Translations under genes and position numbers: made by a program
The notes under the pieces: generated by a model
The model's input: the letters and a program-made list of their open reading frames with translations, nothing else
Databases searched by the model: none
What the model was told of the DNA's origin: nothing
Shown: piece after piece, positions 15,888 through 37,000 of the stretch
How the letters are laid out: every line of letters begins with the position of its first letter
Position numbering within the stretch: position 1 is the first letter of the stretch
NCBI GenBank assembly: GCA_045627285.1
Contig: JAZQNJ010000053.1
Coordinates: 39,190-103,189, forward strand
DNA from: Treponema sp.
Lineage (GTDB): Bacteria > Spirochaetota > Spirochaetia > Treponematales > Treponemataceae
Direction: 5' to 3'
Length of the DNA: 64,000 bases

Positions 15888-15915
15888 TTTGTGAAACATT
15901 AAAATGTTTCACAAA
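15888..15915. promoter_or_regulatory. Perfect 13-bp inverted repeat upstream of parA, built from parS half-sites
   Basis: tttgtgaaacatt-aa-aatgtttcacaaa. Confidence 0.55.
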
Positions 15916-15957
15916 AAATACTATATTTTTGAATTCGTTTTCCGATATACTATATAT

Positions 15958-16713
15958 ATGGGAAAAATAATTGTTTTTGTTAATCAAAAGGGTGGTGTTG
16001 GCAAAACAACTTCCGCTATCAATATTGGGGCATACATTGCTAAAGCTGGTAAAAAGGTTCTTCTTGTAGATTTTGACTCTCAGGGGAACATGTCCAGCGG
16101 TGTAGGTGTTTCAAAAGACAAGCCTACAGTTTATGAACTTCTCGCAGGTCAGTGTTCTCCGGAAGAAGCTGTAAAACATACTCCTGTAGAAAATCTTGAT
16201 GCAATCAGTGCCTCTCTTGACCTTTCAGGTGCAGCAATTGAGCTTGTAGATCAGGAAAACCGCGAGTACTTCCTTAAAAACGCACTGGAGCCATACAGAA
16301 ACCAGTATGACTATATTCTTATTGACTGTCCTCCTTCACTGGGAATCCTTACCCTTAACGGTCTTGCAGCCGCAGATTCAGTAATGGTTCCAATGCAGTG
16401 TGAGTATTTTGCTCTTGAAGGTATTTCCCTGTTGCTTCAGTCAGTACAGAAAGTTCAGAAATCAATTAATCCAAAGCTTGTAATCGGGGGAATTTTCTTC
16501 ACTATGTATGACAGCCGTACACGCCTTGCACAGGACGTTGTACGCCAGGTACAGGCTTATTTTAAAGATGTTGTATTTAACACAATCATTCCGCGGAACG
16601 TCCGCCTTTCAGAAGCTCCTTCTCACGGTGAACCAATCTGTCTTTATGATCCGGAATGTGTTGGTGCAAAGAGCTATCAGAAACTTGCTGATGAGGTAAT
16701 CCGTCGTGGCTAA
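15958..16713 (+). CDS. parA: ParA/Soj chromosome partitioning ATPase
   Basis: NQKGGVGKTT deviant Walker A, DCPPSLG, IPRNVRLSEAPSHG; start MGKII at 15958. Confidence 0.96.
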   Translation: MGKIIVFVNQKGGVGKTTSAINIGAYIAKAGKKVLLVDFDSQGNMSSGVGVSKDKPTVYELLAGQCSPEEAVKHTPVENLDAISASLDLSGAAIELVDQENREYFLKNALEPYRNQYDYILIDCPPSLGILTLNGLAAADSVMVPMQCEYFALEGISLLLQSVQKVQKSINPKLVIGGIFFTMYDSRTRLAQDVVRQVQAYFKDVVFNTIIPRNVRLSEAPSHGEPICLYDPECVGAKSYQKLADEVIRRG

Positions 16714-17668
16714 GAAATTTGGACTTGGTGCAGGCCTTGATGCCCTTATGGGTGGTTCTGCAAAAACAGAAGTAAAACCTGTTGAACCTGCAGCTGCTGC
16801 AGATGAAAAAAAAGAAACAACATTTAAGGCTGTAAAAACTGTTGCTGGGCTTCCTGCCGGAATCGAACAGGACGAAAACGGCCGTCTATGGGTTGATCCA
16901 GAGCTCTTAAAGCCAAACCCTCATCAGCCTCGCGAAGAGTTTGACGAAGAAAAACTCAAGGAACTGTCAGATTCCATCAAAGAAAACGGCGTAATTCAGC
17001 CGATTACAATTGAAGATGCAAAAGATGGCACTTTCTATATTATTGCCGGAGAACGCCGTACAAGAGCTTCAAAAATGGCAGGCCTTAAAAAGGTTCCTGT
17101 TCAGCTTTCAGCCTACAGCGAACAGAAAAAGCTGGAAGTTGCATTGATTGAAAACATTCAGCGTGCAGATTTAAATCCTGTAGAAGAAGCCAAGGCTTAC
17201 TATAAGCTTATGGAACTTGGCGGGCTTAAACAGGAAGAAGTTGCACAGAAAGTCGGCAAAAACCGTGCAACAGTTGCAAATGCAATCCGCCTTTTAAAGC
17301 TTCCAGAAGATATTCAGAATGCCCTTGTTTCAGGCCAGATTACAGCAGGTCATGCCAGAGCACTGCTTATGGTAAAAGACAAAATGAACATGCAGATTCT
17401 GTTCGGCAAAATCGTAGGACAGGGACTTTCAGTTCATCAGGCAGAAGTTATGGCTGGCGAAATAAACAATCCTCAGCCAAAGGAACCTAAGAACGGAGGT
17501 TCAAAAGGTCCTGCCCGAGACCCGGATCTTATTGATGTAGAAACACAGCTTATAGAAAAGCTCGGAACAAAAGTACAGATTAAGGGCAGCTACGAAAAAG
17601 GCAGCATCGAGATCAGCTACTATAACAAAGCAGATTTCGACAGACTTTTCGAACTGATTAGTAAGTAA
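16706..17668 (+). CDS. parB: ParB/Spo0J partition protein
   Basis: N-terminal GLGAGLDAL, PNPHQPR, AGERRTRA, ENIQRADL, HTH; overlaps the parA stop. Confidence 0.96.
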   Translation: MAKKFGLGAGLDALMGGSAKTEVKPVEPAAAADEKKETTFKAVKTVAGLPAGIEQDENGRLWVDPELLKPNPHQPREEFDEEKLKELSDSIKENGVIQPITIEDAKDGTFYIIAGERRTRASKMAGLKKVPVQLSAYSEQKKLEVALIENIQRADLNPVEEAKAYYKLMELGGLKQEEVAQKVGKNRATVANAIRLLKLPEDIQNALVSGQITAGHARALLMVKDKMNMQILFGKIVGQGLSVHQAEVMAGEINNPQPKEPKNGGSKGPARDPDLIDVETQLIEKLGTKVQIKGSYEKGSIEISYYNKADFDRLFELISK

Positions 17669-17686
17669 GAATTAGTAATTAATAAT

Positions 17687-17729
17687 AAAAAAAACACGAG
17701 TCGATGGTAAACCGGACTCGTGTTTTTTT
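17687..17729. terminator. Bidirectional intrinsic terminator between parB and cobB
   Basis: A-run, cacgagtc...gactcgtg, T-run. Confidence 0.8.
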
Positions 17730-18462
17730 ATCTCACCACAATCTTCTCAAACACGCTGCCCAGGCCCTGGTGCAAAACAAGACTGCACATTGAGTCAGCC
17801 TGGGTTTCGCTTTTATTAATCATAACAATATTGTTTCCACGGAAGTATCGAATAAAACCCGCAGCCGGATAAACTACAAGACTGGTCCCACCAATAATCA
17901 GCAGGTCTGCTTCAGAAATTGCCTTTATTGCACCTGTTACCACATCATCGTCCAGGCCTTCTTCATAAAGAACTACATCAGGCTTAACAAGTCCTCCACA
18001 GCTGCAGCGTGGCAGCGAGTCCGGAGCCCCTGCACTTTCAGAAATAAAAGTATCATCGTAAAAATTACCGCATTCCATGCAGAAGTTACGGAGTGTTGAA
18101 CCGTGAAGCTCATACACTTTTTTGCTTCCAGCTTTCTGATGCAGGCCGTCAATGTTCTGTGTAACTACGGCACTGAGTTTTCCTGCTGCTTCCAGTTCTG
18201 CCAGTTTTTTGTGAGTGATGTTTGGTTCAACGCCTTTAATAATAAGCTTTTCCCTATAAAATCTGTAAAATTCTTTTGGATTCCTGTCAAAGAAGCTGCG
18301 GCTGATGATAGTTTCCGGCGGATATTTCCACTGCTGCTGGTATAAGCCGTCCTGGCTCCTGAAGTCCGGAATGCCTGATTCTGTGCTTACTCCAGCACCT
18401 CCAAAAAATACAATTTTCTTAGATTCATCTATTAATGCCTGTAGCTTTTGCAGAGATTCCAT
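17728..18462 (-). CDS. cobB: Sir2-family NAD-dependent deacylase
   Basis: GAGVSTESGIPDFR, TQNIDGLH, HGS, CxxC...CxC, GTSLVVYPAA. Confidence 0.92.
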   Translation of the reverse strand: MESLQKLQALIDESKKIVFFGGAGVSTESGIPDFRSQDGLYQQQWKYPPETIISRSFFDRNPKEFYRFYREKLIIKGVEPNITHKKLAELEAAGKLSAVVTQNIDGLHQKAGSKKVYELHGSTLRNFCMECGNFYDDTFISESAGAPDSLPRCSCGGLVKPDVVLYEEGLDDDVVTGAIKAISEADLLIIGGTSLVVYPAAGFIRYFRGNNIVMINKSETQADSMCSLVLHQGLGSVFEKIVVR

Positions 18463-18655: not shown

Positions 18656-21600
18656 ATGTTCAAAAAGGGATTACTCATATTAACAGCTTTGTTGATGACT
18701 GGTTCAGTATTTGCTCACGGAAAAGGCGATATCGATAAACGCGATGTTGCCCAGATGGACAGTTGGCAGGAAGATATTGAAGTAGGCAAGAAAAAAGAAG
18801 GTACATACAACGTTCTTGTTACTGTAGAAGATAAAGGTGGTAACAAAACTGTTGGGGGGCCTTACAATATTTTCATTGATAAAGACTCTGACTTCCCTGT
18901 TTCTGGAATTACTAACCCTATTAGAAATATGCGTGTTCCAGGTAACCTTAACATTGTAGGTACCTGTATCGATGATGATGGTGTAGATGCTGTTTATCTT
19001 TCAATTTTTAAAGGTACAAAAGACGAAAAAAACAAGCCTGTTGTAACTATTACAACAAAAGACGGAAAAGAAGTTGAACTCCGTGATGTACTTGTTACAG
19101 GTAAAGAATTCTGGGAATACAAACTTGATACAACTTCAATGGAAGAAGGCCCTTATACAATCGAAGTATACGGTGATGATATTCATGGACATTCTTCAAA
19201 AACTAAGAATCACAAAAAAGGTGTAGTTACATTCAACCTGGACCGCCGTCTCCCTGTTACTCAGGTAACAAATATGGAGCTTGGTAAACTTGTTTCAGGT
19301 AAAATTACTCTTAAAGGAAATGTTACTGATGGAAACGGCATCAAGAATCTCCAGTATTCTCTTGATGGACAGCAGAACTTTTTTGACCTTAAATTCAAGG
19401 AAGATAAAAAGACAGGAATATGCACTTTTGAGCTTCCTGTAAACACAAAAGACTTTAAGGATGGAGCTGCAGTGTGCTGGTTCCGTTCTGTTGATAAAAT
19501 GGGCTCGGTTGGCCTTAACTCATTCCTCTACTTTATTGATAACACAAAACCAGATGTAAAAATTGTTTCTCCTGCAGAAGGAGAAGTTAAAAACGGCGTA
19601 TTCGGTGTTGTTGGATATGCAAAAGATGTAATTGGTATTCAGTCTCTTAAATGGACATGTTCAAACGGTAAATCGGGAGAATTTACACTTACTCCGGGTA
19701 ACCCTTACTGGTATCAGGAAATTGATACTGCAGGTATGACCAAAAACGTTGAATTTACAGTTACAGCAATTGATACAGTAAACAACGAAGTTGTAAAGAA
19801 AATTACAATTCCTCTTGATCAGGAAGCAGATAAACCTGTTGTTACAATCGAATATCCTGCAGCAGACCAGGTTGTAGAAGGAGATGCAGGAACTGTATTC
19901 CTTCGCGGTATTGCTTCAGATGATGACGGTGTTGCTTCAATCGAATACAAGCTTGATGGCGGTGAAGTAAAGACTTTGGAAACTCACGGTGTATTCTACA
20001 GCCTTATGTCAGAAGAAGCTGACCTTCCTGCAGGTAAACATTCAGTAACAGTTACTGCTGTTGATAAATTCGGTGTAAAGGGCAATCCTGTAACACATTC
20101 ATTCATATCAAAAGGAAAAATTCCTGTATTTGCAGAGGCAAAAGCCGGTGGAAAGCCGGTATTCTCTGGCATTACAGTTCATCCGGAAGCAAATCCTTCA
20201 TACGAAACATCAGTTTCTTCAGCAGCAGGTATTTCATCTGTGGCATGGAAAGTTGAATGGGGCAAAGAAGGCATTAAGACTGGTGAAAGTACAGTTAAGC
20301 CTGGTGACAAGACAGTTAACGTTTCAATCCCATTAAACAATTCAGAAATTGCCTGGGGTGCCGTAAAGATTACAGTCACTGCAGCTGATATTTACAACCG
20401 TGTTGTAGAAAAGAGCGATGTTGTAAAAATTCAGGACATTACAGATATTGCAGTTGAAGCTCCAAAAGTTGTTATAGATGACAGCCGTGTAAGTGAATCT
20501 GGCGATATCATCAATGATGTAAATCATCCTGTAAGCGGATATTTTGCAGGTGGAAAAATAAAGAGTGCATCAATCGTACCTGCAACTCCATTTGCAGCAA
20601 TCACATTTAACGAAAACACATTTACTCTTACTGCAACAGATAATCCTGATGTTGTAGGTGCATCTGCTCCGGTAAAAGTCCGTGTTGTTTCTACAGATAA
20701 CATCCCTTATGAAAGTCAGGAACTTATTTTCCATTCAGATTCTCCTGCTCCAGAAGTTGCTGTAGACAGTCCTATAGAAGTTGTTCTTTCTGTTCCTGTT
20801 GAACAGAAAGATGAAGAAGGAAATGTAATTCCAGCTCCAAAAGAATCTGTTACAGTTAATGGTAAGGTTGCTTCTAAAGCAGGCCTTACTTCCATTGGTT
20901 ACAGAATTGCTTCTTTTGGATTAACATATGACCAGAAAACTAAAAACCTTGTAACAGGAGCTGCTGCTTCAGCAAAATTCGGTGAATTAACAGCTATTCC
21001 TGCTAAAACAGGCAGTTTCTCTTTTGAAATTCCATCAGAAAACCTCGGACCGGGTATGCACATTGTAGAAATCGTTGCAAACAATGGCAAAACAGCTGCC
21101 GGTGCTGTATTCATTAAAAAGCTTCCTGCACTTCCTGAAACTGATGCTGCAGGAAAAAAGATTACCGGTCCAAAGGGAACTTATTACGGCTGGGCAGACG
21201 GCGTTGATGTTTATGGAGCAATTATCTGTCAGAATGATGCTGCAGAGGGCTTCTCAAAGGTTGAATACCGCAGAGATATGAAGCCTGGCGAAACTGCTGT
21301 TTCATTTAAGGATAAGACCGGTAAAGCTGTTTCAACATATAAGGCAAGTAAACCTGGGGCTGCAAAAGTGTTTATTACAAGTGTGGGCGGTATTGCTTAT
21401 GCCAGCGGTATGCACGTTGTAATTCCTTATGGAGCAAAGGATGCTGTAAAGGCTGTTGTTACCGTAGAATCCCAGGCTGCACTTAAAGCAATCAACTGGA
21501 CAGTTGAAGGAGAATCTGTTCCTGGCGGAGATGTAAAAACATCAGGTAAAATCACAGATCCAAAGCTTATCCGTTCACCTGCTGCAGGTGTTTATGAAGC

Positions 21601-24600
21601 AGACATCTCCCTTGGAAACCTTCCTGTTCGTTTTACTACCTTAAAGGTAACGGCAGAAACTGCAGAGGGCAACGCCGATTACAAGGGAACAATTGCGGTA
21701 ATTCGTGAAAGAGATTCATCACTCATAGATAACGATAGAAGAATTTACTGGGCTCCGGCAGGAGATGCTCTTTATGACACAGCATCAGACAGATATGTAA
21801 TTAAGACAGGTGACCGCTTTAATGCCTTTGCAAATGTTTACGCACCTGTTAATGTCAGCTTTGTTTCAGCACAGCCTGGACTTACAGTTACAGCTGACGG
21901 AAACAATATTTATGTAATAGCAGAAAAAGAAGGTACTTATAAAAATGTTGCAGTAAAAGTAACTGATGCACAGGGCGTATCATATACATCATCTGCCGTA
22001 AGTTTTCTTGTTGATGATGCACTTCCAGCTGTTTCAATCGAAGCTCCTGCAGCCCGTAAGTGGATCCAGAAGACAACAAGTCTTTCTGTAAAGGCTTCGG
22101 ATACAAACGGAATTGCTTCAGTAGAATTCTCACTGGATGGCGGTCAGACCTGGAATCCGGCAGCGGCTGCTGGTTCAGGTTCTTATACAGCCGTAATTAA
22201 TGCAGGAGAAATGGATGACGGACTTGTTAGTGTTGATATCCGTGCAAAAGATAATGCCGGAAAATATGGTTATACACAGACTGTAATCCAGAAGGATACA
22301 ACTCCACCGGATCCGCTTGTAATCGTTCCTTGTCCAGAAGACATTGTAAACGGTGAAAACGAAATCGTATTTGCCGTAAAAGACAATGGATACTTTGCAA
22401 AAGCAGAATATGTAGCACCAAAAACTGGAAAAGAAACTCCGGCAGCTGTCGAAGTTCCATTCACATCAATGGTTGAAACCCACGTAGGTACAAAAGAAAA
22501 GCCGATTGATGAAAAGATGTCATTTATCTTTACTGATGAAGCAGGCAATACAACAACATACAGAGTATGGGACTTTATCGTAGACAATAAGAGTGACCTC
22601 CCTGTTGCAGAAGTTCATCTTCCTGACGAAGAAGCTGTAATTACAACGGCATTCCAGATTTCTGGTATTACTATTGATGATGATGGACCTACAAAGATCT
22701 GGTATAAGCTTGATGACGGTGAATATAAACCGGCCAGTGAAGATTATGCTTCAAGTTTTAAAATTGATATTGATAAAGTTTCATTCACAAAACTTGGTGA
22801 CAACGAACATAAAGTTACAGTATATGCAGAAGACCTGAACGGTGTTAAAGGTCCTGAGTTTGTACGCAACTTTAAAATTTCTCTTGAAGAACCTCAGGGT
22901 GCAGTAGAAACTCCGCCAATCACAGAAACTGTAAAAGGCTGGGTAAAACTCACTGGTAGAGCAACTGATAAAAACGGTATCAGAGCAGTATATGTATCTG
23001 TAGATAACGGTAACACATATAACGAATCTGTAGGTAACTTCTCTCACGAAAATCAGACTGCTAACTGGTCTTACGAATTTGATACTCGTGTAGTTCAGGA
23101 TGGAACTCATGTTGTCTTCTTAAAGATCGTAGACTGGTTCGGTATTGAAGGTATCTTCTCTACACAGATTAATATTGATAACACAGCTCCAAGCATTGAT
23201 CTTGAACTTCCTCTTGATGACTCTAAGACAACAAAGATGTTGTTCTTCTCTGGTCAGACAACAGATAATATCGGGCTTGAAAAACTTTACATTACAATCC
23301 GTTCCCTTGAAGGAAAGACTGTAAGCTCAAGACTTTCAAGAATTGATCTTGTGCCAGGTGAAATCATTACACAGTCAATTGACCTTTCTTCTCTGGATAA
23401 CGGTTTCTACAACGTAGAACTTACTGGTCACGATGCTGCTGATAACATTACACGTGTTTCACGCAACATTCAGCTTAATAAGAATGCTGTTCTTACAAAG
23501 GTTGACCTTCTTTATCCTCTTAACGGAGAAGCTGTTCAGGGTAGATTCAATATTTATGGTACTGCTGTAAGTGATATTAATATTGAGAAGCTTGAATTGC
23601 TTGTTGATGGTACAGCTGTAGCGGAAACTACACTTTCTGCCAGCGGATACTATAAATTCGATATTAATCCAAATGATAAAAATGCCCCTGTGATTCTTGA
23701 AAACGGCGATCACAAAATCCAGGTAAAAGCTCATCTGGCTAATGTTCATACAATTGTTTCTGGAGAACAGACAATTAAATACCGTGCTGATGGTCCTTGG
23801 GTAACAATCGATAACTTTACTTACGGTGATTTTGCTATTGAACGACCATATATTGCAGGAAAAGCAGGTTACTCTGTAACAGCTGAAGAAGTTGCTGCAG
23901 CAAAGGCTAAGGGTGCATCTAAAGAAACAAAAGCTGCCCTTGAAGCTAAATCTGTAGAAAAAGTTGAAATCTCATTTAACAACGGTAAGACATTCCAGGA
24001 AGTTTCACAGTCTGGAAAATGGCGTTACCGCATTGAAAATGAGGATATTGCAGAAGGCTATCACTTCCTGCTTGTAAGAGCCATTATGAAGAACGGTGAA
24101 AGAGCCGTAACAAGAGTAATTGTTCAGGTAGATAAGACAAAACCAACTGTTAAGCTTATCAGCCCTGGTGAAGGCGGAAGCTACAACGAAAGCATCGAAT
24201 TTAGTGGTCTTGCACACGATAACGTTGCCCTCAAAAATGTAACACTTCTCCTTCGTAAAGGTGACAAATCAAGCTATGAAGTACCTGCCTTTATACAGGG
24301 ACTTTATCTTGATGGTCAGTTCTGGGGTGCTTCACTGTACAGCTTTGGTGCTGGTCTTTCATTCTTTGATGATAACGTTCGTCTTCAGGCACAGTGGGGT
24401 CAGTTTACACAGCAGCAGAGAAATATCTTCTCAAGAACAACTTCCCGCTATGGTGGAGACATTTATGGTGGAAAGATTCTTGCAAATGTAGCATATATTC
24501 CATTTATGTACTTCTTTGGTCGCGATTATGAATGGCTTTCTGCCAACTGTACTGTCGGAGCAAACTTCTCACGCTTTACAGAAACAGGTTCTGGAAAACC

Positions 24601-24793
24601 TCAGATTCTTTCTGCACTGCTTGCACAGCTTGAATTCCCTAGAATCAGTTTTGCAAAACAGAAGATGTTCAGAACTGTGGCTGTATACACTGAAGGTCAG
24701 CTCTGGTTTATTCCAACAGATGTTCAGTCTACAGTTGATATTGCTTCAATTGTTCCACAGATTTCTATTGGGTTACGTGTAAACGTATTCTAA
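18656..24793 (+). CDS. 2045-aa Ig-like (Big) repeat protein with a C-terminal outer-membrane beta-barrel
   Basis: Sec signal ending SVFA; repeated P.V.I..P....G.A.D..G / D..GN units; last ~160 aa are amphipathic strands ending SIGLRVNVF (terminal Phe). Confidence 0.85.
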   Translation: MFKKGLLILTALLMTGSVFAHGKGDIDKRDVAQMDSWQEDIEVGKKKEGTYNVLVTVEDKGGNKTVGGPYNIFIDKDSDFPVSGITNPIRNMRVPGNLNIVGTCIDDDGVDAVYLSIFKGTKDEKNKPVVTITTKDGKEVELRDVLVTGKEFWEYKLDTTSMEEGPYTIEVYGDDIHGHSSKTKNHKKGVVTFNLDRRLPVTQVTNMELGKLVSGKITLKGNVTDGNGIKNLQYSLDGQQNFFDLKFKEDKKTGICTFELPVNTKDFKDGAAVCWFRSVDKMGSVGLNSFLYFIDNTKPDVKIVSPAEGEVKNGVFGVVGYAKDVIGIQSLKWTCSNGKSGEFTLTPGNPYWYQEIDTAGMTKNVEFTVTAIDTVNNEVVKKITIPLDQEADKPVVTIEYPAADQVVEGDAGTVFLRGIASDDDGVASIEYKLDGGEVKTLETHGVFYSLMSEEADLPAGKHSVTVTAVDKFGVKGNPVTHSFISKGKIPVFAEAKAGGKPVFSGITVHPEANPSYETSVSSAAGISSVAWKVEWGKEGIKTGESTVKPGDKTVNVSIPLNNSEIAWGAVKITVTAADIYNRVVEKSDVVKIQDITDIAVEAPKVVIDDSRVSESGDIINDVNHPVSGYFAGGKIKSASIVPATPFAAITFNENTFTLTATDNPDVVGASAPVKVRVVSTDNIPYESQELIFHSDSPAPEVAVDSPIEVVLSVPVEQKDEEGNVIPAPKESVTVNGKVASKAGLTSIGYRIASFGLTYDQKTKNLVTGAAASAKFGELTAIPAKTGSFSFEIPSENLGPGMHIVEIVANNGKTAAGAVFIKKLPALPETDAAGKKITGPKGTYYGWADGVDVYGAIICQNDAAEGFSKVEYRRDMKPGETAVSFKDKTGKAVSTYKASKPGAAKVFITSVGGIAYASGMHVVIPYGAKDAVKAVVTVESQAALKAINWTVEGESVPGGDVKTSGKITDPKLIRSPAAGVYEADISLGNLPVRFTTLKVTAETAEGNADYKGTIAVIRERDSSLIDNDRRIYWAPAGDALYDTASDRYVIKTGDRFNAFANVYAPVNVSFVSAQPGLTVTADGNNIYVIAEKEGTYKNVAVKVTDAQGVSYTSSAVSFLVDDALPAVSIEAPAARKWIQKTTSLSVKASDTNGIASVEFSLDGGQTWNPAAAAGSGSYTAVINAGEMDDGLVSVDIRAKDNAGKYGYTQTVIQKDTTPPDPLVIVPCPEDIVNGENEIVFAVKDNGYFAKAEYVAPKTGKETPAAVEVPFTSMVETHVGTKEKPIDEKMSFIFTDEAGNTTTYRVWDFIVDNKSDLPVAEVHLPDEEAVITTAFQISGITIDDDGPTKIWYKLDDGEYKPASEDYASSFKIDIDKVSFTKLGDNEHKVTVYAEDLNGVKGPEFVRNFKISLEEPQGAVETPPITETVKGWVKLTGRATDKNGIRAVYVSVDNGNTYNESVGNFSHENQTANWSYEFDTRVVQDGTHVVFLKIVDWFGIEGIFSTQINIDNTAPSIDLELPLDDSKTTKMLFFSGQTTDNIGLEKLYITIRSLEGKTVSSRLSRIDLVPGEIITQSIDLSSLDNGFYNVELTGHDAADNITRVSRNIQLNKNAVLTKVDLLYPLNGEAVQGRFNIYGTAVSDINIEKLELLVDGTAVAETTLSASGYYKFDINPNDKNAPVILENGDHKIQVKAHLANVHTIVSGEQTIKYRADGPWVTIDNFTYGDFAIERPYIAGKAGYSVTAEEVAAAKAKGASKETKAALEAKSVEKVEISFNNGKTFQEVSQSGKWRYRIENEDIAEGYHFLLVRAIMKNGERAVTRVIVQVDKTKPTVKLISPGEGGSYNESIEFSGLAHDNVALKNVTLLLRKGDKSSYEVPAFIQGLYLDGQFWGASLYSFGAGLSFFDDNVRLQAQWGQFTQQQRNIFSRTTSRYGGDIYGGKILANVAYIPFMYFFGRDYEWLSANCTVGANFSRFTETGSGKPQILSALLAQLEFPRISFAKQKMFRTVAVYTEGQLWFIPTDVQSTVDIASIVPQISIGLRVNVF

Positions 24794-25096: not shown

Positions 25097-28000
25097 ATGA
25101 CTGGCAAATTAAGAAGAGTATTTTTTACAGGATCCGTAGCAGTGCTTGGACTGGCAGCTATGTTCAGTTCCTGTTCAAATGGCGTTGGTCTTGGAGAATC
25201 TGTAGATACAAAGGCTCCTCAAATTTCAATTGAATATCCCCCTGTTGCGGCTATTATACGGGAACAGTTTGTTCTTGCCGGAAAATGGGATGATGATAAA
25301 GGTCTTAAACAGATTTCTGTTTCTGTAATTAATACTGAAGCAAAAAAGGATGAGTCACCTGTCTGGACCGGGACAGCCACAATCAACTCAAATAAAACCT
25401 GGCAGGTTCTTTTAAATCAGGCTGATGCCAGTAATTCTTCCGAGGTGCCTGTATATCCTCTCCTTGACGGTAAATACCAGATTTCAGTTGTAGCAGAAGA
25501 TAATGCAGGCAATTCTTCTGGTGAAGCATCACGAACATTTGATATTGATAATACTGCTCCTGTATTCATTATTTCTAATCCTGGAGTTGTTAAGTCAGAA
25601 CACAAAACAGCATCTGCTTATGGTTCCATTTTTACCGTAGAAGGAACTATTGCTGATGATCATGCAATTTCAACAATGGAAGTTGCCGTTTACGATAAAA
25701 ACGGACAGGTTGTCAGTCACGAAGTTTATGACGGACAGCAGGTAGACTCATTTGTAGAAGAAGATATATCTACTGCCGGCGGTACAAGCGTTACTATTGC
25801 TCAGTATTCTGATTCTAACGGCAGATATTCCATGATACACCCTTCGGATAATGGTACAGAAGAATATTACTGTTCTGTAAAGCTTTCTGATAATGCAAGA
25901 AAATACGACAATCCTTTTAACGAATCTCGTGAAGCTGCTGTGGAAAAAACAGATGCTGTCGGTAACCAGACATTTGATGTTTATCTTTATGACAGTGTTT
26001 TTACAACTCTTATGAGTTCGAAGAAAGGTAAAGGTCTTAGTGCTACAGATCTAAAAAATGTTCTTAATGGAACAAAAAATGATGCTGAAGTTCTCGAAAC
26101 ACTTAAAGCTGTAGTAAAAGATACAACTGAAGAAGAATCAAGACTTTGTTTTACACTTAACCCTGAAGCAAACCCTACATATCAGATTAACGGTCTTGAA
26201 TACAGTTTTGCACCTGACAGCATGATTCAGAGCTATTCGTCAGGAAACCCGGTTTCTGTCAGTGTTTCTGCAGGTCTTGACGGAACAAATATTCAGCCGT
26301 CAGCAGTAAAAGTATGGATAAAAGAATTTGATTCAGCTCCAGACAGCGAAAATGAAGTAAGGACAGCTATTAATGCCCTTGTAGCAGATGTTTCATCAAA
26401 AGAAAATAACGAATTTGAATTCCATCAGGTTACCGATTCATTAAGTGATGAAGCTACAAAAATTCAGGTTGATGATGGTGCGAAATGGATTCTTATTTAT
26501 GATTATTATGAAAATCTTCCAGTGGGTACAAACGGACAAAAAACAGAAGAAAGCTCTGTGGGAACAAAAACATTCTCTGTAACTCTTCCGTCAGGAATTG
26601 TTCTCAACAAGCACTATATCATCGCTGTTACAGGTGCCGATGTTGAAGACGTAAAATTCAAACACGAAAAGCTTTATGGATTTATTGGTAACGAAGCCGG
26701 AGTTCCTCCTACAATCGCTGTTACAAGTCCTTCAAATCTTGATGTAGTAAACTCTTCGGCCTTTGCATTTACAGGAAATGTTTCAATCAAATCTAAATCA
26801 CTCTATGTTTCAGAATTAAAGGCTACTTTGACAGTAACTGATGAAGATGCAGGATCAGCAATCGGTTCAAATAACTATTATGTAGCTGCAATTAAATATA
26901 ACAATAATACTGGAGAATGGGCTCCTGATCCTGATTATCCTGCTAGTTCTGCCCTTAAATGTAAAGACGGAGAATGGACATTTACACCAAGTCTGCTGCC
27001 AAATTACCATGCTGCCGACAGCAGAATCGTTGCCGAAGAAGGCTCTGGTAAAAACTATCTTTACACTGTAGAAATTTACGCAAAATCATCATCTGGTCAC
27101 GAAAATACCGTTTCTTCCAACGTTCATATAGATACAACATCACCAGTAATCGAAATTGCTTCAATTCTTCCTTCAATCGAAGGTTTTGACAGTACAGGAA
27201 ATGTTTATGTAAACGAGTCTGTAACCGTAAAAGGCAACATCGAAGAAACAAACCTTAAAAACGTAGAGATGGAAGTTTATGCCGACGGTGTAAAAGTTGA
27301 TTCCCTCTGCAAGGATCTTGGAAAAGTTTATTCATTTACAGAAGTTGTTGATTCAAACAAAATTAAAGACGGTGCAAAAATTGATGTAAGGATTGTAGCA
27401 GCTGATATTGTAGATAATAAAACAGTTTATTCATCACAGACAGATTCTGTTACTTATGCAAACCTTTATGTAAACCAGGAAACAGACAGACCTGTTATTA
27501 CTCTCAATAACTCTTCTAATTCAAGTCTCTTTACAGCAGACTCGTCTAATATCAACGAAACAAACGGAAACCTTTTTGGAGTTACTACAAATAACAGACT
27601 TACAGCTACAATCACTGATGATGATCTTATTAAGAAGGTGCTTGTTTACGTTTATGATGCAAACGGAGCCCTCCTTGCTGCTGAAAAGACAAACGATGTT
27701 TACAATGTAAACCCGGTAACTGTTGCTCCGGACAAGGCTTCCCATAACCTTACTTACCTCTTACCGGAAGACGAGGGTATTTATAAAATTAAGATTGATG
27801 CACTTGATTATGAAAAAACCGCAGAAAATGATAAGCCTGTTGGAGAAGCATCTACAGGAGAATTCTTTATTGCTGTTTCTAACGGTGCACCTTCTGTATA
27901 TCTGGACAATGTAGCTACATATCAGACAGCAGAACCTGTTATTACAGGTACAGTATCAAGCAAAGCGGCTGTAGTTTCAGCAAAATTCATTGATGAAGTT

Positions 28001-31000
28001 ACAAACAGAGAACTTTCAACTCAGCCGGCTGTAATTACCATTGAAAAAGACGGACAGGATCCTCTTAAATGGAAAACAGTATTCGACAAGGCTCTTCCAA
28101 ATGCCAATTATACAATTCTCTATACAGCAAAAAATGACTTTGGTCAGACAAATACAGTTAAAGCTGCATTTACAGTTGATAACAAAAACCCTGAACTGGT
28201 TATTACTCAGTACGGTTCAACTTCAGAAGTTGTTTCAGCTGCAAAGCAATTCCACATCAACCCGGAAAATATTTACACTGTAAAGGGTGCCGTAACAGAC
28301 GGTCTTTCTGGTGTTGAAGCCGTTTATTTCTATCTGGGAGATATTCCAGCAGGAAAAGAATTCCCATCTTCTAACAACGGCTGGAGTGTTGCGGCTCTTC
28401 AGAGTTCACAGGGATACTATACATCTTCAAACACAACTGATTCTAAGGAAGTTACAAATCAACGGGCATGGACTGCATCGCTTACAGATGTAAATAATCT
28501 TGCAGTTCAGGATGGATCTGCAGGTTATACACTTCATATTGCAGCTGTCGATAAAGCTGGAAACAGCAGTGCAAATGTTGATTATATTTCTATCTGGCCT
28601 GATAGTCAGAATCCGGTTCTTTCAGTTGTACCTGAAGTAGAAAACGGGTTAATTATTGAAAAGGGAAATACAAAATACGCATCTAAGAACTACAAGTTCA
28701 AAGGAACAATTACAGAAAACCAGATTAATTCCCTTAAAATCGGTGGTACAGATGTAACTTCTTCCATAACAGACGGAGCATTTACTTATATTCCATCTGT
28801 TACTCAGGATGGCACTGTATCATATAACTTTGTTGTAACTGATAAGGCTGGCAACAGTGAATCAAAAACAGTTTCTGTAGCCCGTGATACAACTGCTCCT
28901 GACGTAGCTCTTTCAAAACCTGTTGCAGGTGGTCTTATTGGCAGTTCAGATAAGATTCACGGTACTGTAAACGATGACGGCATTGGTGTTGATACTGATG
29001 GTGTTCATTATGTAATTAAAAAGAATAATGCAGTAATAGCCGGAGGTGAAGGCGATGCAGTTATTACTGGAAATACATGGCAGATCAACAATCTGACAAT
29101 CAACTCTGAAGGTACCTTTACAATTGAGCTTACTGGTAAAGACAAACTTGGAAACAAGAAGACATACGATGCTGTTACTTTCTACTATGACTCTGCAGCT
29201 CCAGCTGTAAGGGAATCAGGAGAATCTGCACGTACTGTAAACGGACAATACACACTCAGCGGAACCGTTGTAGAAACAAATGGTCTTTATTCAATGACAA
29301 TAAAAGACAGTGCTGCCGGCAGTTCCGACGTAACATTATCAAATACAGCTTCTGGAAACGGCTTCAGATTAAAAACAGGTTCTACTGATACATACGAATG
29401 GACATATACAGAAACATCACCAGTGGATGGCTCTCACATCTACCAGATTTCTGCAACTGATATTACACAGAACTCTGAACGAGCTTCCAACATTGTTACA
29501 AGAACAGTAAATGTAGACACTGCTTTGCCGGAAATTACAAATGTTATTAATCCTGATCTGGTAAAGCTTGATGATTCAAAATATGTAACACTGAAGGTAA
29601 ATTCAGCAGACATCAAGAAAAATGATTTCTCTACAGGGCTTGCCGGTGTTTATTACAAAGTAATTTCAAGGTCTTCAAGAGCTGTTGTTACTGCAGCCGA
29701 TCTGACAGAAGAAAACGGATGGTATGCAATGTCTCAGGGAATTTCAAACTGGAATGCTACTTTTGACATTACAAAATTCGGTGAAGAATTCTCTAAGGAT
29801 GGAACAGTGTATGCTGGTTTTGCAGCTGTGGATCAGGCTTCTAACGTAAGTGTCAGCAGTACAGATGCAGTAATTGTAATAGATGAAAAGCGTCCTGCCG
29901 TAACAGTTTACAAAGAAACAGACTGTATAAATGTTGTCTCGTCAATTACCGGATATCAGACAAATGCAGTAGATGTAACACTGTATGCTGTGGTTTTTGA
30001 TACAAACATCAGCAACACAGCTCTGACTGGAACAGCAAGTAACAATGCAAATGTTACATGCACATTCGTTGAAAACGTAACAGGCGGTAAAAAATTCAAA
30101 GTAAGTTTTAAGGCTTCTGATGACGGAACAACAGAACTTTTACTTACTGCAAAAGACACAAATAATCGCACTTCAGATACAGCAAGAGCTCCTGTAGTTT
30201 GTGATAAAGTTGCACCTGTTGTAACTCTTGATACACCTTCAACTGAAGGTACAACATCTTCAAACACTGTAAAAGTAATGGGTACTGTTCTGGAAAACAA
30301 TCTTTCGTCAGTAACAGTTAACCTTGTTGATTACAATTCTCCTGCTACAGTTAAGTTCTCTGCTACAGCAAATCCATCGCAGCATGAAGAATACGAAGAA
30401 AGTAAAAGAAAATATAACTGGGATGCACTTATACCTTCAGTAGCTGATGGAAAATACAAGATTCAGGTTATTGCTTCTGATACTTATAATAACGTAACAA
30501 CAGTTACTTCTGATTTTGGATATGTTGTAGATATTACAAAACCTGTTGTAGAAAATATTGCCACATCTGCCTCTAATGTAAACATTGCAACTGCAGGACA
30601 GACATTCACTGTTTCTGCCGATGTTACAGATGCAACAAGTGGAATTAACTCTGTAAGACTTCTTGATAACGGAACTGACATGAATATTGTTCCTGCAAAA
30701 TCAGGCAGTAAATACACATTCACTGTTCCACAGGAAAAACTTACTACAGGTTCTCATTCTTACACAGTTTCTGCGGTAGATAAGGCAGGAAATACAAATA
30801 CAGCTGTTAAATCAATTCAGTGTGATACAACAGCACCTGAGATTAAAGTTTCGGGTATCAGTCCGACAGTTACTGACAGTTCAATAGTTTATGTAAACGG
30901 TAAGATTACAGTTTCTGGTAATGCCAGTGATGAAACTGAACTTGCATCAGCTGCTCTCAGTGTTAAAGTTTTCAAGAAAAATGATGCTCTGACAGATGCC

Positions 31001-34000
31001 AATGACCTTGCCTCCAAAACAGCAGGTCTTGTGCTTGAAAACGGTACAGACAGTTATACTCTTGGCGGAACATACAAAACATGGAGCTTTGTACTGGATA
31101 CACAGAAACTTGATGACAATACCGATTATGTGATTGTTGTTTCAGGTACAGATAAAGCCGGTAATACACCAGCAGCAGATTCTGTACTTACACACGAAAT
31201 CAAGGTTAATCAGGAAACAGATAAACCTGTTTCAACACTGACAAATGCAGAAATTCAGTATGGTGGTGAAGACCTTACTTCAATAGTTCAGCTCAATGGT
31301 AAGCAGATAAATATCTTTAAGCCTGGTGACAGATTGACAGGTTCTGTTTCTGATGATGATGGAATTAAGACTGTAAAAGTTACTGTTACAAATGAATCAG
31401 GTACACAAGTTGCATCATCAACTCCTGTATCGGGCGGCAACAAAACAACTTATACCGTAAACTATCAGCTTCCTTCAAATCTTCCAGAAGGCGGATATAT
31501 TGTTTCTATTGAAGTTGAAGATATTAAGGGAGAAACAACAAACAGCACAAGCTTCAATTCAGTTCCTGTAGCTGTAGATAACGGAGCACCTGTGCTTACT
31601 ATTTCTAATCCTGTTTCTTCACTTTACTATAATTCAAAAGTTGCAGTTGAAGGATCTGTAACTGACGGATGCGAAGTTAAACTTGCTGTATCAGGAACCC
31701 CATTCAGTTCTGAAAAATATTCTTCTGAAACTGTTGTTAGCGGAAGTTTTACAGATACAATTACAATCCCTGGTTCAGTTGCAGAAAGCGGGGAAGAATA
31801 CTCTGTAACATATACCGCTACTGACCGATGGGGACAGACAGCTTCTCAGACAGTTAAATTCAGCAAAGACTCAATAAGACCAGTTGTAAACGGAAGCAGC
31901 GATACAAAAGTTGGAAACGCAGTCTGGTCTGACGGTTCATGGTACAAATCAGGAACACTTCAGGTAACAATTCCATGGACAGAAAATGGTTCAGGTCTTG
32001 AAAAGGTTTATTACTGGGTAGGATATACAGGAAGAACGGACGATGTACCTGCTGATCTTTCAATAGATGGAAATAATGATGGAAGCACAACTGTTTCCGG
32101 TAAGGGTGATTCAATTAAGGTTGAAGTAACACCAACCAGCTTTAAGGAAGATGATTCTTCTGAAGCAGCACGCACGACAAATACACTTTATGTTCAGGCA
32201 AAAGATAAGGCTGGAAACTTAAGCGACATTAAGTCATATACAATTCATATTGACCAGACAGAACCATCATTTGAATCTGTATTCTATACTTATGATGGTG
32301 CAAGTTTCTTTGATGCTAATGGTTCTGTACTTACAAACCAGAAGCAGAATATCACAATTTACGGTGCAATTTCGGACCCTGCATCAGGTGTTGGAGAACT
32401 TTCTATAAAGGTTGGAGCAGTTTCCAAGTCAGCAGCAATCCAGTATACAACTGCTGCAAGCCTTTCAAACAGCGATGAATACAAGAACGCTTCATGGAAG
32501 GATTACAGTGCAATTGAAGACAAAACAAAAATTACAGGCTGGAAGCTTGTTCTGAAGGCAAATGACTGTACATCAGGGGACGTAAGAATTACACCTGTTG
32601 ACGTTGCAGGTAACGGTACAGCCCAGCGTGTATTTGCATTCAGCGTAGATACAGTTGCTCCATCTGCAGCAATCGGTGCAAGCCTTGTAACAACAGGTAT
32701 TAACGGAACACATGCAATCAGCGGTTCTGTAACAGAAACCGGAGAACCTGCTTCATTTAAACTGTATTATACAAATACAAATCCTTCATTATTAACTGCA
32801 GTTGCTCCTGATGCAGATGGCAGTATCTGGACACTTATGACTGCAAATTACGAGGCAGATGGACAGAATTACTCAACAGAGGAATTTACTTCCGCCCAGA
32901 GAATCTTTAACTGGTCAGGATACAGCCTCGACTTTACAGCAAAATCACAGGCTGCATCTAAAGCAAACGGACAGGACAACATTTATCTTCTTCCTGTCGT
33001 AACTGACAAGGCTGGTAACTGTAACATTTACACAGATACATATAATGCAGAAACAGGAACTGCTGTTCGTACTTACAACCTGTCAGGTGCATACAGGACT
33101 TACCTTGTTGACCTGGCAACAGACAGACCGCTTGTTAAGTTCAGCGATATTTCTGAAAATGGAAGCGGAAGTTACATCATTAAAAACTCTGTAGGTGCCG
33201 TAATTTCTGGGACAGTAACAGATGATGACGCAACATCAGCAGAGCAGGTTAAGACATTTATCGTAAGTTCTTCTGACGTAACTGATGCCACAGGATTTAC
33301 TGCAACTACAAACGGCAACATTGTTACATATAAAGCTAATACAGGTGTATCTTATACAGATGCCAAGAATGTTCAGAAAACTGGTTACGACATGACAACA
33401 TTCAACAAACTGGACGGTTCATGGACATTTACACCAGCTAATCCTCTTGATGGAACAAAAAATGTTTATGTTTACATTGAAGATAACAGTAATACGGTTT
33501 TCTATACAACAAAAACTTCCACAGGCTATACAATCCGCAATAACCCAAGATTCCAGGTTAAGACTGGCACTGTGGGTGCATTATCATCAGTAATCAGTTA
33601 CAGCTCTGATAATGAAGTCCCTGTTGTTGATTACATCAAATACTCATTCTCTAATGCACAGAACGGTACATACTATAACGAAGCCGGAACTGAAGGAGGA
33701 TATAGTGATGTATCACCAAGTGCATTCCTTGGTGGTGTTTCAAGAAGATTCGTTAAGTTCCAGATTCTTGCGAAAGATAACAACGGTATTGCAGACCTGA
33801 CCCTTAACGTAGCAGGTTTTGATGATGACATTACAGTAAGGAAAGATGAAGCTAATTCAACCGCTACATCTGCTGTTTACATTTCTGATCCAATTAGTCT
33901 TGAAGGAAAAGCAAGCGGACTTACAGAAGTGAGGGCTACTCCAATCGATAACTCAGGTCTTTCTCAGGGTAGTAAACTACAATTCTACACAGATAACGAA

Positions 34001-37000
34001 GTTAAACTGGATGGATTTAAAGTTACAACTTCTGCAATAGAAACATTTACTTCTGACGTTAAGATCAGCGGTGTTTCTACAGACGGTGGCTCTGGAGCCA
34101 AATACATCAGTTGGGCTGTACCATCCGGAAATGGTGCTAACCCGACATATATGTGGTCAGAAAAAAATGAAGCTGCTTCTGTCTGGAACTTTGAATACAA
34201 CGCTGCAGACGGTAATTCCCTTACAAATTACACCGGCGATGATTATGAAAAATACGGTGTAACTAAAAACGGTTATGTATATTCAATTCCAGTACATTTC
34301 CTGGTAGAAGATGAACTTGGAAACACAGGAATCTACAAAGACTACAGAATCAATTACAATCCAAATGCTAACTGGCCTACTGCAGAAGTTCTTACACCAC
34401 AGAATGATACAATCCTTGGTACAACAGCTGACTTTGCCGGATCAGCAAAAGACAACAACGAAATCAAGGCTTCTTACATCCAGTTTGACCTTGACGGTGA
34501 CGGAGACTTTGATGATTTGGATAAAAGTGCAATCGAAAATCTTAACAGCTCTATTACAGTTTACACTGCAGCTAATGCAGGTGATGGCGGTACCGGCTTA
34601 AGTACAACCGATGGTCCATATAAAGATGGTGATGACAGATCATCATGGTGGGGTATTAAAGTAAGCGGTACAACAAGCTGGAACGGACTTAACATCAAGC
34701 TTCCAACTTCTCCTACCGAAGGTGATGAAGTTGTAAACAAGACAAAATGGAAGGTTCGCGTATGTTCTGTAGATAACGAAAACATTGCAGGTCTCTGGTC
34801 AACTCCGGTAGCCTTCCGTGTAGACGATGCAGCACCAAAGATTGGTAACGAAATCAAGATTGTTACAAACTCAAATGGTTCTAAAGATTATACAGCTGAT
34901 ATGTATGTTTCACAGAATACAGGTAATAACTGGAAGCTTGTACTTGATTTGTGGGATGAAGATGCGGGTATTAATCTGGATGCAACAAACGTAACTGTGA
35001 GAGTGGGTAACAACCCGGCCCAGACTTTGAATAAAGCTATTGACGGAACAATGACAGATTCAAAGTGGGGTTATGAAGCAACAGGAAAAAGTGGAGGTAA
35101 CAACAACTACAAGATTTACATCCCGTTGAATACAAATGACGAAGGTACTGTAACTTATTCTGTAAAGACAACTGACAACTCAAAAGACAAGCTTACAACA
35201 TCTGCACAGTATTCATTTACCGTGGACAATACAGCTCCGGATGTAAGTCCTGTACAATTTGCATCAAAGGCTCTTCATATGAACATCCTGAGTAACTCAA
35301 ATTACTCAGCTGAAGTTTCGACAGAAGTCTCTGATGCAATTTCGGGATTTGCAAGCCTTAACTTGTTCTTTGAACGTGCAGGCAGCTACTTCGTTCCATT
35401 TGCAGGTGGCAGTACAGACAACTGGTCAACAGTAAGTGCATCGGGAAAATCTTACAGTCTGACAGACGGTATGCCAGGTCTTTCTGTAGCGGGTACAGGT
35501 TCTAAGGGGGAAAATACATATAAAATTTCTTCTTACAATGCAGAAACCCACAGTTACATCCGTGCCGGTGGAATCATTAAGATTGACGGTTCTTACTACA
35601 ATATTACCGGTGTTGCTGGTGGTGTAGTTACATTTGACGGCAAACTTGCTTCTGATGTAGAAACAGCCGTATTCCCTTATGTACTGACAGTAAACTATAC
35701 AACAACAAGTACAGAAAGCCGTGTGACTACAGGAACTACTTACAAAGTAACAGGTGATGATGGTGATGGACTTGTTGAAGGTGTAACAAAAGAAGGTTCA
35801 ACATGGACCTGTACAGCAGCAATTCTTTCTGATGCTATTTCGGACGGTACTGTAACACTTCATGCTGTTGCAATAGACCAGGCCGGTAACATTAGTACAG
35901 ATCTTCTGACTCCGACAATGATCTCAAATAATGCACCTCGTGTTGCAAGGGTTTACCTTGGTAACGACTTGAACGGGGATACATACTATTCTGCAGATGA
36001 AATGGAATGGTTCAGTGCTCTTGATGAAAACGGTAAGTCACAGGAATATGTAACTCTGGTAACTGACAGATTTGAAGTAAACAGCAAAATTCCAGAAAAT
36101 ACAAATGGAAAAGCTTCTGCAAAGGCATACTTTAAAGTAACAGGCGACATAGTAATCGTTCCTGAATTTGTAAACGGAGAAAGCGGTCATGGATCAGGTC
36201 AAGGCGACGTTATTTACGATGCCGTAATTGCTTCTGACGCTAAAGATCCAACCTGGAATACAAATAACCTCCACGGTTCTATAGCCGTAAACAGCAAAAT
36301 TGAATCTGGAATTAAGACAAAAGATGCAGCTGGAACTGATACAGATACAGGCTTAAGTACATTAAAAGCTGTAACCCTTACAGGTGCAAATATGAACAGT
36401 AAGTTCAACAAGGAAGACAAAAAAGCAACAATTGCCCTTTCTTTGTGGGATTCTGCTGAAGTATATACGCTTTCCGAAGGGGCATTCACTTCTACACCAG
36501 TCGCTGAAGGTACGGCTTCTGTTAAAGGGACAAATGCATACACAAGCTTCGGTTACCAGTGGACTCTTGTAAACATTCCAGTTTACTTTGATATTACTGA
36601 CGACGTAGCTCCTGCAGGTACAATTACACCGTTCTACTGGAATGAAGGTGCAGCAGCACCTGAAGCAACAGGTACAGCAGGTAACCGTACAACAGATGAC
36701 AACTCAATCGTTTATTACGAAACTGTAATAGGAACAGATTCAACAGTTGCTCCTGTAGGTCATATTGATCTTGGAAAACACAGAACAGGTAATATCCCTG
36801 CGGTTTCAGGTGTAATCAAGATTGAAGGTACTGCAAGTGATGACCAGCGAATGTCAAATGTAAATGTAGACTTTGGTTCTGGTTCTGCAACAGCTACATA
36901 TAATTCTACAAATGCAACATGGTCAACTTCAGGAACTCTGGCAGACAACGGCTATAACCTGACAATGAGAGAAAACTCCATTACCCAGGACGGCCATTCT

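Follow-up and report, generated by a model that had tools for sequence, protein, structure and literature searches.

A complementary split immunoglobulin-like domain at the two ends of a Treponema Ig-repeat protein with an outer-membrane barrel

The window analysed here, a 64,000-nucleotide stretch of a Treponema sp. genome, carries on its forward strand (18656-24793) the gene of a protein of 2045 amino acids (aa), P0001, in which a signal peptide and an array of immunoglobulin-like (Ig) domains, bounded by the two parts of a split Ig domain, precede an 8-stranded barrel. The signal peptide (18656-18715, aa 1-20) is type I-like without a lipobox cysteine, as read from the sequence with the cleavage site judged by eye, and a lipobox-like motif occurs in only 7 of 219 homologues. 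It is followed by an N-terminal half-domain with strands D-E-F-G (18716-18883, aa 21-76), delimited by repeat hidden Markov models (HMMs), conservation and the model of the homologue P0379 described below. The array itself comprises four complete repeats, d1-d4 (18884-20116, aa 77-487), an atypical middle of variable length (20117-22012, aa 488-1119) with an estimated six or so divergent beta-rich modules that match the repeat HMM weakly, and seven complete repeats, c7-c1 (22013-24130, aa 1120-1825); the complete repeats were assigned by the repeat HMM, and about 17 whole Ig domains lie between the two half-domains. The C-terminal half-domain, with strands A-A'-B-C (24131-24271, aa 1826-1872), ends in a conserved RxGDK motif, and the outer-membrane beta-barrel (24293-24793, aa ~1880-2045), identified by AlphaFold2 and fold matches, ends in a phenylalanine. 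All these features lie on the forward strand.

In Pfam, the 2045-aa protein was recognised only for its bacterial Ig repeats (Big_7, Big_13 and Big_3_3; PF17957, E-value 4.7e-55; PF19077, E-value 1.3e-14), with a weak match to Ca_tandemer adhesin repeats below the cut-off. A sequence search of the PDB gave no match, and the OmpA family was found neither by Pfam nor by NCBIfam in this protein, whose chain ends at the barrel.

The first-pass annotation, made from the letters of the window and a list of its open reading frames, had claimed that the second half of an Ig domain opens the protein and that only the first half stands before the barrel. The half-repeat peptides quoted for the two ends are indeed located there, in frame in the open reading frame 18656-24793, at aa 37-75 and aa 1830-1869. 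The N-terminal piece corresponds to the second Ig half, but not to that alone, as a short D strand (aa ~27-32) is also present; the split point therefore falls between A-A'-B-C and D-E-F-G. With an HMM of 95 positions, built solely from the nine internal complete repeats of the protein, aa 28-66 matched positions 49-87 (E-value 7.6e-7) and aa 1826-1867 matched positions 1-42 (E-value 1.1e-5), so that the coverage of the two pieces is complementary and without overlap. The C-terminal unit is devoid of D, E, F and G, and all four are supplied by the N-terminal piece, ~1,750 aa away in the chain. Upstream of the latter there is only the 20-aa signal peptide, and downstream of the former lies the barrel. 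The arrangement recurred when a family-wide repeat HMM was used: the C-terminal unit begins at model position 10-19 in 279 of 280 homologues and ends at position 50-69, that is, as a first half only, in 267 of them, whereas the first N-terminal match begins in mid-repeat, at position 50-69, in 258 of 275, the exceptions being mostly truncated proteins. Both half-domains are strongly conserved, with many columns above 90%.

The homologues, gathered by protein, representative and genome searches, come from Treponema and other Spirochaetia, with several spirochaete families represented; the family is conserved in T. denticola, T. socranskii, T. lecithinolyticum, rumen treponemes and Spirochaeta thermophila. 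Among the 301 genomes searched, 48 carry a member, including 22 of the 28 other genomes of the window's family and genomes of several other families; most of this phylum sample gave no match, one complete 1.1-Mb genome of the window's family included. Full-length homologues range from 1,034 to 2,618 aa, and the complementary split is kept in nearly all of them. The distance from the N-terminal half to the end of d2 (interquartile range 244-249 aa) and from c5 to the end of the protein (719-736 aa) is near-constant, and the variation in length is confined to the stretch between d2 and c5; best-match mapping of the individual d3 and d4 domains was noisy and was left unused. The window's genome holds a second member (contig C99:7682-13762), with 61% identity over the C-terminal 256 aa and the same split. 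The natural homologue P0379, present in two assemblies, measures 1,034 aa, with seven whole Ig domains and no atypical middle. We rejected the possibility that it is a fragment of a split gene, because P0379 carries a signal peptide of its own and the gene upstream encodes a complete paralogue; the two, of 1,408 and 1,034 aa, lie in tandem (L069:5759-13105), each with the split domain. In a distant spirochaete group (L044-L058, e.g., L053:2784-9023) a Lys/Glu-rich, coiled-coil-like segment of 110-270 aa stands between the signal peptide and the N-terminal half. It does not provide the missing strands; it would emerge beside the barrel, which recalls stalked outer-membrane tethers. Literature searches, with most subscription papers outside their scope, found no paper describing the family or an end-to-end split Ig arrangement.

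Coevolving contacts between the two halves, to which the first-pass annotation had pointed as a check, were sought in an alignment of 337 paired sequences (effective number, Meff, ~199), using as reference the contacts derived from 2,896 intact repeats (Meff 1,556). The pairs V43-I1847 and N71-D1870 ranked 7 and 14 among all pairs. The contacts of intact repeats were enriched between the halves, with an area under the curve (AUC) of 0.66-0.69 (p 1e-5 to 6e-4), compared to 0.71-0.77 in the same test on two intact domains (c1, 0.71-0.73) and 0.41-0.59 for six non-partner pairings, negatives that share the phylogeny. The latter were used as controls because shuffled pairing, which in direct coupling analysis gave maximal inter-segment z values of 3.7-4.7, also removes the shared phylogeny. 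The contacts were in the correct register, the true one being the best of 81 tried (0.89 vs. 0.20 ± 0.18). Moreover, the block formed by the two halves was the densest of 91 inter-domain blocks between 14 segments (44 per 10^4), followed by that of the C-terminal half with d1 (28 per 10^4), and N1844 was coupled to D79, D107 and D108, a junction signature as found between consecutive tandem repeats.

Structure prediction was carried out with AlphaFold2. The model of aa 1713-2045 (predicted local distance difference test, pLDDT, 93.6; predicted template modelling score, pTM, 0.80) consists of one whole Ig domain (c1), a half-domain and the 8-stranded barrel; the N-terminus is absent from it, strands A' and C are partnerless and the confidence drops to 71-88. 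In the full-length model of P0379 (pTM 0.59), where a 23-aa disordered linker takes the place of the missing middle, every strand of both halves is paired (pLDDT 85-92). In both cases strand pairing and closure were inferred from DSSP assignments, without coordinates. Co-folding of the two ends, also suggested by the first-pass annotation, was scored against a mark that 58 of 80 solved complexes and 2 of 110 mismatches reach. The pair aa 21-80 and aa 1820-2045 obtained 0.38 vs. 0.00 for the best control, with at least 96% contact agreement among runs and a partner pLDDT of at least 67 vs. 44 with an unrelated chain; this is a weak pass, in a low score range shared with both passing mismatches.

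Taken together, the complementary HMM coverage, the coevolution, the strand pairing seen only when both ends are present and the co-fold support the proposal that the halves complement each other, which is very probable; it is computationally shown that the N-terminal D-G piece and the A-C piece before the barrel behave as one Ig domain. Standing in series, the rebuilt domain links the last whole domain, c1, to the first, d1. In the Ig topology the chain comes in through strand A at one end and goes out through G at the other, and the end of C and the start of D lie beside the end of G; the order is therefore c1, split domain, d1, with both the barrel and the mature N-terminus at the C-D loop. 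Consequently, the cis form is a closed loop from whose C-D loop the barrel branches off, which amends the loop-or-hairpin geometry put forward initially.

Fold comparison showed that the whole domains match PDB Ig folds in normal strand order, and c1 folds as a whole Ig domain of this kind (Z 11.9 to 6tn6_A; root-mean-square deviation, rmsd, 2.3; 90 aligned). The barrel matched the OprF barrel 4rlc_A (Z 14.3, rmsd 2.9, 126 aligned), NspA (Z 14.1) and OmpA, with 9-13% identity to its structural matches. It has 8 antiparallel strands in ~165 aa, and its terminal phenylalanine, an aromatic beta-signal, is 93% conserved. With the full-length model, Foldseek returned only generic multi-Ig matches (TM-score by query at most 0.21). 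The VIA and Atlas fold searches identified single domains, closure being beyond their reach, and the leads of the Atlas feature search all stayed under 0.9. The protein is a bacterial Ig-repeat protein with an OmpA-like 8-stranded barrel; OmpA proper was rejected on account of the lack of a C-terminal peptidoglycan-binding OmpA domain. The standard topology of 8-stranded barrels puts the N-terminus in the periplasm. Here, the gappy, variable connections are those between strands 3-4 and 7-8, and conservation is highest in turns 2-3 and 4-5, a pattern that matches this topology; the Ig part is therefore probably periplasmic and not on the surface.

The alternatives differ in how, and whether, the two pieces find a partner. 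Half-repeats at the ends of an array arise easily through duplication and truncation, an established mechanism of circular permutation, and the pieces might accordingly never pair at long range, being the product of a shifted boundary (permuted DEFG-ABC units), segments that fold with adjacent sequence, or a vestige. However, in 2,223 tandem pairs the expected contacts reached z 4.7-4.8 within the repeat and 0.57 in the permuted register, and a shifted domain boundary was rejected. Folding of each segment with adjacent sequence, which the first-pass annotation had named as part of what would speak against complementation, was rejected as well: the AUC was 0.50-0.53 for the N-terminal half with the first half of d1 and 0.49-0.55 for the C-terminal half with the second half of c1. 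The normal strand order of the whole domains, the C-terminal half left unpaired with the barrel in the aa 1713-2045 model and the conservation of both halves, unlike that of vestiges, point the same way; this explanation is largely refuted and we give it very little credence. Just as improbable is that each half is completed by another protein, for example by the neighbouring giant Ig lipoproteins, which co-occur with the barrel protein, often adjoin it and have a conserved tag ahead of the first Ig domain. That first domain is complete, so these lipoproteins are not the missing halves; furthermore, a genome scan found paired terminal halves only in the barrel protein and its paralogue, and the halves co-evolve with each other.

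A weightier competitor, although in our opinion a doubtful one, is complementation in trans, where the N-terminal half of one molecule would complete the C-terminal half of its neighbour, so that dimers, closed oligomers or a continuous Ig filament would result; such a filament would run along the inner face of the outer membrane, with a barrel pin every 8-18 or more domains. All the coevolution and co-fold evidence fits it equally well, stiff tandem junctions favour extended chains, and the predicted coiled coil ahead of the N-terminal half in the distant group could oligomerise. A precedent is FimA, of which one sequence exists as self-complemented monomer or as polymer, the polymer-like form being more stable (PMC6615685). 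On the other hand, the single-chain model of P0379 pairs both halves confidently, no chaperone or usher gene was noticed beside the barrel gene (those families were not specifically searched), and intramolecular closure should win kinetically, geometry permitting. Cutting across the question of cis or trans, the halves might still be complementary in a surface-exposed adhesin with an autotransporter-like passenger, as Big_7 and Big_13 repeats are typical of surface adhesins and the Ca_tandemer match, though under the cut-off, is to adhesin repeats. We consider this unlikely, because the barrel has 8 strands vs. 12 in type Va and Ve translocators, no linker threads it and the conservation of loops and turns fits a periplasmic N-terminus. 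A type Va autotransporter was rejected, since 8 strands in ~165 aa do not make a C-terminal 12-stranded barrel with a pore linker, and so was a type Ve inverse autotransporter (intimin/invasin), whose 12-stranded barrel is N-terminal.

Given complementation, closure in cis is quite likely, and it is favoured because one chain can apparently close, the shortest form keeps a flexible linker and no assembly machinery was noticed alongside. In the model of P0379 closure seems feasible within one chain of 1,012 aa, with the 23-aa flexible linker at the deleted middle, and across the family the terminal arms are fixed in length while the middle varies. On the whole we lean towards a self-closing cis Ig loop attached to the barrel, probably in the periplasm. 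After Sec export the whole domains would fold and the barrel would insert into the outer membrane; the N-terminal piece would then dock, Velcro-like, onto the C-terminal piece of the same chain. The resulting closed loop would contain 8 domains in the shortest homologue, ~18 here and more in longer homologues, would be joined to the barrel via the C-D loop of the split domain, and its size would be set by insertions opposite the barrel.

Several points weigh against a self-closing loop or lessen the force of its evidence. An 8-domain ring needs ~45 degrees per junction, and Asp/Asn-rich junctions of this type, as in SiiE-type repeats, tend to be stiff. Closure in the models was read from DSSP across two different homologues, and the single-chain model of P0379 gave no option of pairing in trans. 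Among the calibration pairs, co-fold scores of at most 0.60 that reach the mark belong to only 7 solved complexes and to both mismatches, and a pair of Ig halves may reach it merely because the predictor is familiar with the Ig fold. Coevolution is blind to the difference between intra- and intermolecular contacts; its p values take no account of relatedness, which the negative pairings have in common, and the couplings of N1844 rest on ~19 variant sequences. Finally, the side-by-side arm contacts of a hairpin were not detected: the blocks of d1/d2 with c4/c5 were slightly raised, 17-23 vs. ~11 per 10^4, with no clustered pairs.

Tandem Ig proteins are treated as open linear rods. The protein shares tandem bacterial Ig domains and D-x-x-x-P linkers with Ig-repeat adhesins such as SiiE and intimin/invasin (SiiE fragment 2yn3: Z 9.8, rmsd 7.0, 258 aligned). 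Such adhesins form open, linear rods on the surface, with export through a type I system or through a 12-stranded barrel at the N-terminus, and to our knowledge none has a terminal split domain. In Velcro-closed beta-propellers one or more N-terminal strands complete the last repeat and close the ring in one chain (PMC2716378). Here too, terminal segments of one chain would form one repeat, the pairing being supported and probably intramolecular, but whole Ig domains stand in series, four strands complete three, and the loop would reach ~1,850 aa, with variable size and a membrane barrel branching from the split domain. In chaperone-usher pilins, too, an N-terminal piece fills in an incomplete Ig fold, in cis or in trans, by donor-strand complementation, and self-complemented FimA monomers exist (PMC6615685). 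In those pili, one G strand is donated between single-domain subunits through chaperone and usher, whereas here about half a domain is donated, the two halves belong to one multidomain protein and every subunit has a barrel of its own; a chaperone-usher pilin was rejected, as the C-terminal unit misses D, E, F and G and not just the G strand. The fold of the C-terminal domain is that of OmpA/OprF, NspA and OmpW, and 8-stranded barrels are also described for T. pallidum TP0126, TP0479, TP0698 and TP0733; the known proteins are single-domain or have the barrel first and a C-terminal peptidoglycan-binding domain (PMC8407342), while in this family the barrel comes last, behind 850-2,400 aa of Ig repeats. 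If true, the rebuilding of a domain from termini ~1,750 residues apart would carry Velcro-type closure over from propellers to giant Ig arrays, or else establish a barrel-pinned filament. The family also gives concrete, testable access to the way in which non-pallidum treponemes arrange their outer membrane and very large lipoproteins.

In the window, the barrel gene lies between parA, parB and a Sir2-like gene, directly upstream (15904-18462), and two giant open reading frames on the forward strand. These encode Ig-repeat lipoproteins of ~4,760 aa (25097-39376), with a complete Ig domain at its start, and ~4,230 aa (41110-53814), a paralogue of the first. Directly beside the barrel gene, in 95-100 loci, were parB, Sir2, giant lipoproteins and unclassified genes. 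In 35 of 95 loci the gene that follows encodes a giant Ig lipoprotein, and this adjacency extends to distant lineages. The conserved C-terminal part of the lipoprotein was found in 20 genomes, all of them among the 48 barrel carriers, a count in which related genomes are not independent and the lipoprotein query is less sensitive. Adjacency and co-occurrence suggest that the giant lipoproteins are probable partners of the barrel protein. In the window and elsewhere (L031-L037, L084-L218) they share a tag, C-x1-5-[GL]LG-x-x-[VI]D, directly after the lipidated cysteine and ahead of the complete first Ig domain; this tag might serve for sorting or for docking to the barrel protein. As to function, we tentatively suggest that the loop might serve, beneath the outer membrane, as a structural scaffold or spacer, docking or guiding the co-encoded giant lipoproteins. 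More speculatively, the family might be the core, anchored in the membrane, of a spirochaete envelope apparatus not yet described, in which split-Ig closure yields size-tunable periplasmic rings or barrel-pinned filaments that hold or export Ig lipoproteins of 2,000-4,800 aa. A ring around the periplasmic flagella was dropped, as many spirochaete families in the sample have no match and nothing links the gene to flagella.

In many loci (L059, L061, L138, L186, L210, L216, L228) the gene downstream of the barrel gene codes instead for a conserved exported protein of ~370 aa, of unassigned family, which is a second candidate partner. On the upstream side, 41 of 100 loci have Sir2 (26) or parB (15) next to the barrel gene, and this recurrence suggests a stable chromosomal position.

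Family members are often labelled as neuraminidase or BNR proteins in databases. A loop of the form S-x-D-x-G-x-T-W, present in some Ig repeats (window 22115-22165, aa ~1154-1170, and homologues), resembles an Asp-box. A sialidase/BNR propeller was rejected, as the sole trace of BNR is a sub-threshold motif located in an Ig loop and the models of P0379 and of aa 1713-2045, which leave the 630-aa middle of P0001 outside, are free of propellers; the Asp-box-like loop probably explains the database labels.

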